A stretch of DNA of 6,159 nt from IMG/VR virus record IMGVR_UViG_2531839236_000025. One strand, given 5' to 3'. Under the pieces are notes generated by a model. The model worked only from the letters and a program-made list of their open reading frames with translations. It ran no database searches and was not told the origin of the DNA. The DNA comes from a virus (Duplodnaviria > Heunggongvirae > Uroviricota > Caudoviricetes). Positions 309-2,246 of the stretch are shown one piece after another. How positions within the stretch are numbered: position 1 is the stretch's first letter; each line of letters begins with the position of its first letter. The position numbers and the translations under genes were made by a program.

Positions 309-2246
309 TCAGCCGCCGGACGCAGTTCCGTAGTTCACACCGGTGATCACAGCCACCGCCGCGGTACGGCGACGACGCCAGTTGATCCAGCGCTCCGCAC
401 GGATGGCCACGCTGCCGGTCTGGAACATGGAGACCAGCTCCACCGGTGACGGTGTGCTGCTGTCGCTGGTCGGTTCAGACTGCATCTCCAGTGACGCTTC
501 ACGGGACATATCCACCGCCACACCACCGTCATCCGCCAGATAAATATCCGGCGCATTCACCAGTACCAGCTGGTCACCCACATACTGGGAGACAATCACC
601 GGCAGCCCCTGGAAGGTCCCGCCCAGCAGGGTCATGTCCGGATATTCCTTCTGCCCCAGCGCATTTTTACGCATGGACAGCGCCAGGGCATTCGTGCTGG
701 ACATCAGCCAGACCGCACCGGTGGGCTGCAGATTTGCCGTCACAAACTGGCCAAACGCAGCCTCGGCATCCGCATCCGGGTTACCGGTTGATGCCGTGCC
801 CTTCACATCATGGGTGATGGACGCCGGGGAGACATCTGCCACTGCGGCTTTTTTCGGGTCCACAAAGTCTGTATCCAGACGCGCCACCACCGCTTCCGCC
901 AGCGCATTACGGACCAGTGCATCAGCAGCCGGACTGGAAAAACGGATCAATTCTTCCGTCAGTACCGCAATGGCCGACACCTTCGCATGACTGAAGGTGA
1001 TGGATTCAAAATCAAACTTCGTCAGGGGTTTTGCCTTACCCTCACCCACCCAGCCGGCAGCACCGCCGGACACCTGGGCGTGCACACGGATATTGAATGG
1101 CACCTGACGAAGTGCAGGGATCCCGCCCTGACCAAATCGCCCGATAATGGTCTGCGGACGCAGGTAATCAATAAAGTCCTGTGCGTATTCCTGATATTCA
1201 GACAGGCTGCCTGCCCACTGCGGATCCGTGGTGGTCCCCGCGCCCACTGCCGATTTCAGGACATGATGCAGACGACTGTCATCCGGATACTGACGACGGG
1301 CCACTTCCAGGGCTTCAGATCGGACGCCTTTAGCCGCAGCCAGCGATTTGGCAAAGCGGGCGAAGCCAATCCCCTTATCCAGTTTCTGCTCCACACGGAT
1401 CACCGGCGCAGAAGCCACCGCGGCCACATTCCCGTTACCGGCCTGTTTCACCGGCTGCGCCGTGGCGGCCTTACCGGCTTCCAGTTCACGCAGGCGCTTC
1501 AGGTGCGCATCCACCTGACGGATTTCCGCTGCGGTGTTGTCGTAATGCTCTTCCTCCTCCACATCCAGCGTGCGCCCTTCCTCTGCGGCTTTGGTCATGA
1601 CCTCCTCAAGGGAGGCTGCCAGCGCTGCACGCTTGTTTTCAAAACTTTTAATCTGTTCGCCAATATTCATTATGGTCTTTTCCTTATGAAAAACGGTTGT
1701 TGACTGTGCCGCAGCGCCGGCAGAAGATGCGATTTTCACCACCGGTTTCCGGTTGCCGGACGCGGCAGAAAACGGGCGGTCGTAAGATTTAATGGTCCGG
1801 ATGGTGCATTCCGCATTCGCGGGCACGGTGACGGCAGACACCTCCATCAGTTCCCAGCGCAGAAAATGCAGTCCGCCTCCGTCCAGAAAGGTGTATTCAT
1901 GGGGACGGAAGCCCACGGACAGCCCCCTGACCAGCCCGGTCTTAATGGCCGCCCAGACCTCATCCAGCCGGGCAGCCAGTTGCGACGGCATATCCGGTAC
2001 GGGCTTCACCAGTGTTGCCGTGATTTCCAGCCCTTCGCTGACCCGGCGCACCGTACACTGCCCCACCGGGCGGGAATGGTCATGCTGCCAGAGAAACGGG
2101 ATCGCACTGCCAAACTCCGCGCCCTCCGGCTCCAGGATGTCACCATCCCGATCCGGAGAAGGCGTTGACGCAATCCCGGTGATCACCCGTTCATCCTCAC
2201 TGAAGGATTTCACCGTCAGCAGGGAACAGGCCCGTTTAAGAGTCAC
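309..2246 (-). CDS. HK97-family prohead protease fused in-frame to scaffold-like coiled-coil region and HK97-fold major capsid protein (645 aa)
   Basis: N-terminal ~160 aa carries prohead protease (S78/U35-type) motifs: FLWQHDHSRPVGQ, GLSVGF, WELMEVSAVTVPANAE. Residues ~193-300 are charged and coiled-coil-like (delta/scaffold-like). The C-terminal part resembles HK97-family capsid proteins (LLGGTFQGLPVIVSQYVGDQLVLVNAPDIYLADDGGVAVDMSREASLE). Start is GTG at 2246..2244 with AGGAGG 5 nt upstream; stop TGA at 311..309. Confidence 0.85.
   Translation of the reverse strand: MTLKRACSLLTVKSFSEDERVITGIASTPSPDRDGDILEPEGAEFGSAIPFLWQHDHSRPVGQCTVRRVSEGLEITATLVKPVPDMPSQLAARLDEVWAAIKTGLVRGLSVGFRPHEYTFLDGGGLHFLRWELMEVSAVTVPANAECTIRTIKSYDRPFSAASGNRKPVVKIASSAGAAAQSTTVFHKEKTIMNIGEQIKSFENKRAALAASLEEVMTKAAEEGRTLDVEEEEHYDNTAAEIRQVDAHLKRLRELEAGKAATAQPVKQAGNGNVAAVASAPVIRVEQKLDKGIGFARFAKSLAAAKGVRSEALEVARRQYPDDSRLHHVLKSAVGAGTTTDPQWAGSLSEYQEYAQDFIDYLRPQTIIGRFGQGGIPALRQVPFNIRVHAQVSGGAAGWVGEGKAKPLTKFDFESITFSHAKVSAIAVLTEELIRFSSPAADALVRNALAEAVVARLDTDFVDPKKAAVADVSPASITHDVKGTASTGNPDADAEAAFGQFVTANLQPTGAVWLMSSTNALALSMRKNALGQKEYPDMTLLGGTFQGLPVIVSQYVGDQLVLVNAPDIYLADDGGVAVDMSREASLEMQSEPTSDSSTPSPVELVSMFQTGSVAIRAERWINWRRRRTAAVAVITGVNYGTASGG

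Follow-up and report, generated by a model that had tools for sequence, protein, structure and literature searches.

How can a phage build its shell if each of several hundred capsid subunits carries a protease of 190 residues? Fusions of this kind have repeatedly been noted as an oddity, and protease-scaffold-capsid fusions have been called an "unusual feature" of several actinophage clusters (PMC5513430; PMC7302621). In the current work, we consider this puzzle for a tailed phage (Caudoviricetes) sequence of 6,159 nucleotides from the IMG/VR record IMGVR_UViG_2531839236_000025, the whole of which is called the window below, and in particular for a single open reading frame (ORF) of 645 codons on its minus strand that encodes a prohead protease, a delta-like scaffolding segment and an HK97-fold capsid domain. 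From the comparison of this gene with its relatives, we propose that it probably makes two products, namely a 69-kDa fusion and, from a start nested in the same frame, a 48-kDa delta-capsid protein. A conserved nested capsid cistron offers a simple and testable answer to the question of how protease is dosed in "polyprotein" capsids, and it seems to represent a form of the nested protease/scaffold strategy that has not been described before.

A candidate nested start and its conservation

The elements of the gene that bear on translation initiation, including the Shine-Dalgarno (SD) sequences, are the following.

309..2246, minus strand: protease-linker-delta-capsid ORF, 645 codons plus stop (311..309); 645 amino acids (aa), 69.1 kDa
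2246..2244, minus strand: GTG, the 5' start of the full-length ORF
2257..2252, minus strand: AGGAGG, the SD of the 5' start, 5 nt upstream of GTG 2246
1670..1668, minus strand: ATG (Met193), the internal start codon, beginning MNIGEQIKSF
1681..1685, minus strand: AAGGA, the internal SD core, 10 nt upstream of ATG 1670 and read as Lys-Glu in the fusion frame
309..1670, minus strand: nested in-frame cistron, predicted to encode the delta and capsid parts without the protease; 453 aa, 48.3 kDa

The initial annotation had placed a plausible second start at Met193, with an SD about 10 nt upstream of it, and was right in all coordinates: AAGGAAAAG lies at 1685..1677 (minus strand), with 10 nt separating AAGGA from the ATG. 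The predicted energy needed to open the mRNA at this junction start is 7.3 kcal/mol, which is the lowest value among 46 in-frame start-type codons (median 16.2 kcal/mol) and makes the internal start more open than the 5' GTG start (8.5 kcal/mol), for which the anti-SD duplex energy is -10.3 kcal/mol. The statistical weight for the internal start comes from relatives of the gene, however, and not from the window sequence alone.

Eighty loci (one genome per species, 39-77% identity) were compared, drawn from Gamma-, Beta- and Alphaproteobacteria and a few other metagenome-assembled genomes. The boundary between protease and delta segment was placed in each locus by tblastn; MAFFT had scattered the Met column over the hypervariable linker, hence the re-anchoring on the IAEQI motif and on tblastn coordinates. 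With the window and the locus of a Burkholderia phage, vB_FUB47a, included, 74 loci are fused and eight are split into separate protease and capsid genes. All fused loci carry an in-frame start-type codon, placed 2-7 codons ahead of the conserved IAEQI motif, and among 73 non-identical fused junctions this codon is ATG (67), GTG (3) or TTG (3), with no other Val or Leu codon represented. Met193 is also invariant in 22 Enterobacterales relatives despite the hypervariable linker, and the junction does not vary at all among E. coli relatives at 96-100% identity. Over a broader set of 145 fused representatives, a Met stands 2-3 residues before IAEQI in 106 and within 1-7 residues of it in 130, while the rest mostly have Val or Leu.

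The SD is maintained together with the start codon. A 4-nt SD core occurs at positions -17..-5 in 72 of the 74 junctions, compared to 11.5% of control in-frame start-type codons, and the mean anti-SD duplex energy is -7.6 kcal/mol at the junctions versus -2.6 kcal/mol at 2540 other in-frame ATG, GTG and TTG codons (Mann-Whitney p 6e-33), a strength on par with that of the ORFs' own 5' starts (-7.5 kcal/mol). The spacing from AGG to the start is 7-8 nt or 10-11 nt, and positions -12..-9 are purines in 94-99%. Junction starts also require less energy for opening the mRNA than controls do (9.9 versus 16.4 kcal/mol; p 1e-27). The AGG core falls in codon phases 2, 1 and 0 in 39, 26 and 4 loci, respectively (AAG-GAA versus AAA-GGA, for example), and is consequently read as Lys-Glu, Lys-Gly, Glu-Gly or Glu-Glu depending on the lineage, while its distance to the start is kept. 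Because the core occupies each of the three codon phases although the linker around it is hypervariable, selection appears to act on the RNA and not on the peptide. At the level of sequence, these comparisons demonstrate that the internal SD and start codon are under purifying selection across the fused family.

Relatives with separate genes

Relatives in which the protease and the capsid protein are encoded separately begin the capsid gene at the position of the internal start. In vB_FUB47a, the start of the capsid protein, MTIAEKIK, aligns residue by residue with MNIGEQIK at Met193, and the junction (TAAGGA-N10-ATG) has the same geometry as in the window, with the TAA serving as the stop codon of the protease gene. 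The aligned codon is likewise the start of five stand-alone capsid representatives (P0197, P0226, P0257, P0258 and P0266) and of the capsid gene in seven more genomic loci with separate genes. When the capsid part is placed in a neighbour-joining tree, split forms turn up one by one between fused ones, suggesting several independent switches between the two states, and this scatter fits a capsid cistron that would be autonomous in both. Conservation of the start and the SD, the phase shifts of the SD core and the starts of the split relatives together support the proposal of the initial annotation that two in-frame products, the fusion and a scaffold-capsid protein from Met193, are made in a manner resembling lambda C/Nu3.

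The TAA of TAAGGA is itself present in the window (1686..1684, minus strand), where it is out of frame, whereas in vB_FUB47a it is in frame at an equal distance to the capsid ATG. A similarly placed TAA acts as the protease stop in another locus, L145 (TAAGGAA-N9-ATG), and an out-of-frame TAA just ahead of the SD is seen in several enterobacterial fusions as well (AAT AAA GGA). Both alternative frames of the window close less than 20 nt before Met193. A programmed frameshift to the out-of-frame TAA, giving a protease-only product, was considered and rejected, as no conserved slippery site accompanies it and the TAA is missing in many relatives.

A further feature of the linker was noted in three fused ORFs from Betaproteobacteria (L103, at 2062..2085, L101 and L124), each of which contains a canonical hairpin followed by a run of seven T, e.g., CCCGCCtctGGCGGGTTTTTTT, read as ..SGGFFY.. 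in the fusion frame. The element lies 27-30 nt upstream of the internal start in all three, and in the related split locus L141 it is intergenic. Such an intra-ORF hairpin may be left over from an intergenic terminator, or it may act as an attenuator within the ORF.

Domain architecture of the fused ORF

The protein is divided as follows.

1782..2246, minus strand: HK97-type (Peptidase S78) prohead protease domain, approximately aa 1-155
1671..1781, minus strand: linker, hypervariable and predicted to be disordered, aa 156-192; contains the internal ribosome-binding site
1464..1664, minus strand: delta-like (scaffolding) helical segment, aa 195-261
342..1091, minus strand: HK97-fold capsid domain, aa 386-635

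That one frame of 645 codons carries protease, delta-like and HK97-fold capsid parts, as first read from the letters and translations alone, is borne out by Pfam, NCBIfam and AlphaFold2, and PHROG 617 matches the fused ORF over its full length (E 1e-261). Profile searches, proposed in the initial annotation for placing the domain boundaries, locate the protease at aa 48-152 (Pfam PF04586 Peptidase_S78; E 2.4e-8, 34.7 bits against a gathering score of 21) or aa 48-154 (TIGR01543 prohead protease; E 4e-12), the latter at 46.4 bits, which is under the equivalog cut-off of 59. Judged from these profiles, the domain is a member of the protease family, yet not a close equivalog of HK97 gp4. His55 (2084..2082) and Ser110 (1919..1917), the candidate catalytic residues, are invariant both in an alignment of 22 sequences (A2) and in one of 14 sequences reaching down to 46% identity (A4). 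The linker, by comparison, shows indels and low conservation in the 22 relatives (~75% identity) and in 145 cluster representatives.

The capsid domain is recognized by Pfam PF05065 Phage_capsid (aa 386-635; E 1.2e-14, 54.8 bits against a threshold of 24.2) and, over a longer stretch, by TIGR01554 major_cap_HK97 (aa 204-584, 78.8 bits against a cut-off of 27.5), whose positions 3-355 of 385 are covered and whose position 3 aligns to aa 204 of the fusion. A major capsid protein of known structure, PDB 9d9w, is also matched (E 7.6e-11 when searched with the family profile and 6e-4 for the single sequence). Ahead of this domain, the family profile aligns with residues 4-67 of a 385-aa chain, PDB 9gyi_B ("Major head protein"; E 4.6e-8). 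The AlphaFold2 model was built from a shallow alignment and has a low overall pLDDT of 54, with a poor capsid part; within this model of low overall confidence, the protease is folded at aa 1-150 (pLDDT 60-82), the linker is disordered at aa 155-193 (pLDDT <50), and long helices with a local pLDDT of ~80 span aa 195-222 and 229-261. These helices, together with the match to 9gyi_B, point to a helical delta domain ahead of the HK97 fold. In the model, the linker ends at aa 193 and the first delta helix begins at aa 195, which fits an internal start at Met193. The ORF is best explained as a head-maturation and capsid gene in the HK97-like head module of a lambdoid prophage of E. coli O157:H7, of the type of the Shiga toxin (Stx) phages.

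Distribution of the fusion

Homologs of 644-648 aa at ~75% identity occur throughout the Enterobacterales, and a HMMER search of 1.8 billion cluster representatives returned 12,586 relatives. Approximately 145 of the best 150 representatives (50%-identity clusters) are fusions, with lengths of ~630-680 aa and identities of 38-54%. More than 1000 complete E. coli genomes and ~90 phage records contain this ORF without interruption, as do hundreds of diverged clusters from Gamma-, Beta- and Alphaproteobacteria; the protease-capsid fusion is therefore real and widespread. Annotation, too, has entries for such fusions ("major capsid and protease fusion protein", NCBIfam NF045541, PHROG 4523). Thus, the fusion type itself was already known, while the internal start looks new: no proposal of a nested start in a protease-capsid fusion was found in the literature, although an earlier description in subscription journals is possible.

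A proposed two-product scheme for head assembly

In the scheme that we propose, initiation at GTG 2246 would give the 69.1-kDa protease-linker-delta-capsid fusion, and initiation at the internal AAGGA-N10-ATG (Met193, 1670) would give the 48.3-kDa delta-capsid protein, the equivalent of HK97 gp5. The 48-kDa product would build most of the procapsid shell, into which a few full-length subunits would co-assemble via their capsid part, bringing the protease inside covalently. Such a tether would replace the non-covalent C-terminal targeting tail of the free HK97-type protease, and the delta domains would next be cut away by the protease, which would also digest itself, as happens in HK97. How strong the two ribosome-binding sites are relative to each other may set the protease dose, as for lambda C/Nu3, herpesvirus UL26/UL26.5 and HFTV1 gp17/17.5.

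We also consider it fairly probable, with less confidence than for the window gene itself, that all "polyprotein" genes of the family, in thousands of prophages and including those of the long-tailed Stx phages and of the phage PAJU2, are two-cistron nested genes in which the capsid is always translated autonomously. If this is true, split and fused forms would differ only in whether the protease ends before the internal site or reads through into a capsid subunit; covalent tethering and targeting by a C-terminal tail would be interchangeable means of packaging the protease, which would explain the repeated switches of state. The nested protease-scaffold strategy of lambda and the herpesviruses would thereby be extended to phages whose scaffold lies inside the capsid protein, and genome annotation, which at present lists a single product for the gene, probably misses a second one. 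From a biotechnological perspective, the arrangement suggests a design route to capsid or encapsulin-like nanocontainers with tunable covalent cargo.

Alternative explanations

Several observations weigh against two products. The internal SD of the window is unexceptional, as its anti-SD duplex energy (-6.2 kcal/mol) is equalled or bettered by 9 of 49 other in-frame start-type codons. The relatives were ranked by full-length score, so that fusions are over-represented among them, and the loci are phylogenetically related, so that the p-values are overstated, the pattern of conservation itself (start 73/73, SD core 72/74) being independent of these values. The low mRNA structure at the junctions may owe something to the linker being A-rich and Lys-rich, and the scatter of split forms in the capsid tree would fit repeated, recent fusion events equally well. 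A literature search for ribosome profiling, N-terminal sequencing, mass spectrometry or proteomics of this gene or a close relative found none. In addition, the one published model found for a member of the family concerns the homologous "capsid polyprotein" of PAJU2, thought to be autocatalytically cleaved, and the account of that work in PMC8306868 mentions no second start (Uchiyama 2009 via PMC8306868).

The last of these points belongs to the explanation that survives best after our own, in which only the 69-kDa fusion is translated, every subunit carries the protease, and autoproteolysis frees the capsid, with the internal SD and ATG being an unused relic or the result of a constraint on the protein. 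The PAJU2 homolog is annotated in keeping with this ("prohead protease fused capsid protein"), the actinophage papers describe protease-scaffold-capsid fusions without mention of internal starts (PMC5513430; PMC7302621), and the window's own SD does not stand out. Met, Val and Leu are chemically similar, so exchange among them at the protein level is conceivable; yet the Val and Leu replacements use GTG and TTG only. A relic should moreover decay in a linker that is saturated with changes (40-77% identity), whereas the start and the SD core are kept at the counts given above, and the core changes its phase and its encoded residues while the spacing to the start persists. The Met varies in position, 2-7 residues from the helix anchor, unlike a structural residue, and in PAJU2 itself AGGAGGG precedes the aligned ATG by 8 nt. 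We therefore regard a single polyprotein as unlikely.

A second explanation is that the fusions are short-lived and arise recurrently from split ancestors, carrying the ancestral intergenic SD and ATG along unused. The scattering of the split forms through the tree is compatible with this, and so is the terminator-like hairpin and T7 run that three betaproteobacterial fusions keep in the linker and that is intergenic in the split locus L141. Whole clades are fused, however (e.g., all Enterobacterales, 57-77% identity), and their linkers differ in length and sequence, which argues that the fused state has lasted for long while the ribosome-binding site was retained; a strong, unstructured ribosome-binding site within an mRNA would also be expected to initiate even so. 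This makes recurrent recent fusion quite improbable as an account of the internal site. Lastly, the reading of the ORF as an artefact or pseudogene, in which a sequencing error or recent frameshift joined two normally separate genes (the initial annotation had named separate-gene homologs as a sign of this), could appeal to the split loci (8 of 81) such as vB_FUB47a and to the out-of-frame TAA that is a protease stop in the Burkholderia phage and in L145, but it is effectively refuted by how widely the uninterrupted ORF is conserved, with fusion as the majority state across hundreds of diverged clusters in addition to the >1000 E. coli genomes and ~90 phage records, conserved candidate catalytic residues and a dedicated PHROG family that matches the full length.

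Comparison with known systems

Nested protease/scaffold genes with an internal start are known from lambda (C/Nu3), Mu (I/Z), herpesviruses (UL26/UL26.5) and the archaeal virus HFTV1 (gp17/gp17.5) (bioRxiv 10.64898/2026.09.13.751334; PMC11565193). The window gene resembles the lambda C/Nu3 type in its N-terminal protease and in its internal in-frame start, which has its own ribosome-binding site at the boundary between protease and assembly partner; in the lambda type, the full-length form tethers the protease to that partner, and the choice of start sets the dose. The two differ in the nature of the short product, which is a free scaffold in lambda and would here be the major capsid protein with a built-in delta domain, so that the tether would join the protease to a subunit of the shell. 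They differ also in that two products have been demonstrated for the nested systems and are predicted for the window gene. The protease families are distinct as well, being S78 (HK97 type) in the window and of the lambda C or assemblin type in the nested systems. The window gene, which would operate in the manner of C/Nu3, is thus a variant of that type and falls outside it.

Another known system is ORF003 of PAJU2 (UniProt P85500; L163 2032..4035), which belongs to the same family: it shares 55.6% identity with the representative P0135, whose own identity to the window protein is ~46%. It has in common with the window the gene order of small terminase (TerS), large terminase (TerL), fusion, small ORFs and portal, and its junction (AGGAGGG-N8-ATG, followed by KTTAEQI) is such that the nested-cistron model would apply there too. 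HK97 gp4 and gp5 share with the window gene the families Peptidase_S78/TIGR01543 and PF05065/TIGR01554, and the predicted 453-aa product has the architecture of gp5; in HK97, by contrast, the genes are separate and ordered portal, protease, capsid, whereas the window has one ORF with the portal downstream of the capsid. The actinophage fusions (clusters AM, AU, AN, EE, EL and others; Rhodococcus phage RRH1) also combine protease, scaffold and capsid in one gene, in small siphovirus genomes. Against the fusion family NF045541, the window protein scores 54 bits where the cut-off is 525, with little or no sequence similarity, and on this comparison the window family is a different fusion lineage, unrelated or very distant.

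Genomic context

The remaining genes of the window are listed below.

5228..5413, plus strand: DUF3950 (YlcI/YnfO family) gene, adjoining the HNH endonuclease gene on the opposite strand
5186..4821, minus strand: HNH endonuclease gene, directly upstream of the terminase genes
4531..3968, minus strand: small terminase gene (TerS)
3971..2310, minus strand: large terminase gene (TerL)
264..43, minus strand: conserved 73-codon ORF separating the capsid gene from the portal gene; PHROG 829, E 1e-38

The arrangement of HNH and terminase genes is typical of HK97-like cos phages. The 73-aa ORF (43..264) has no match in Pfam or NCBIfam. At 99% identity, the window corresponds to a lambdoid prophage of E. 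coli O157:H7 EDL933, in which the counterpart of the 645-codon ORF is the RefSeq coding sequence WP_000173030.1, annotated "phage major capsid protein". In the EDL933 locus, the fused ORF is followed by a small ORF, the portal gene, connector genes and lambda-like tail genes, and a lysis cassette precedes the module; the portal coding sequence (~860 aa) is marked as frameshifted and overlaps the 3' end of the 73-aa ORF. A capsid-forming phage-inducible chromosomal island (PICI) satellite, suspected from the order HNH-TerS-TerL-capsid, was ruled out, since lysis and tail genes make the EDL933 locus a complete lambdoid prophage.

The terL stop (2310) is separated from the SD of the fused gene by a gap of 63 nt, which holds a terminator-like hairpin, GAACCGCTGCGGCGGTTT, with TTTTATTTT after it (2258..2285, minus strand). 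Over the whole window, terminator-like sites number 8 against 5.9 expected, which is no excess.

The order TerS, TerL, protease/capsid, small ORF(s) and portal was observed in the window (43..2246), in EDL933 (L001 9513..14246), in PAJU2 (L163) and in the Burkholderia phage (L002). The portal lies downstream of the capsid gene in fused and split relatives alike, whereas the canonical HK97 order is terminase, portal, protease and capsid.

At least 80% of the window is present in 1121 of 5426 complete E. coli genomes. Long-tailed phages that convert for Stx1a, Stx2a and Stx2c, and also BP-4795, have a near-identical protein (96-100%) under the annotation "major head protein/prohead protease", which gives the two-product scheme relevance to the head assembly of Shiga-toxin-converting phages, within a very large family to which it would apply.

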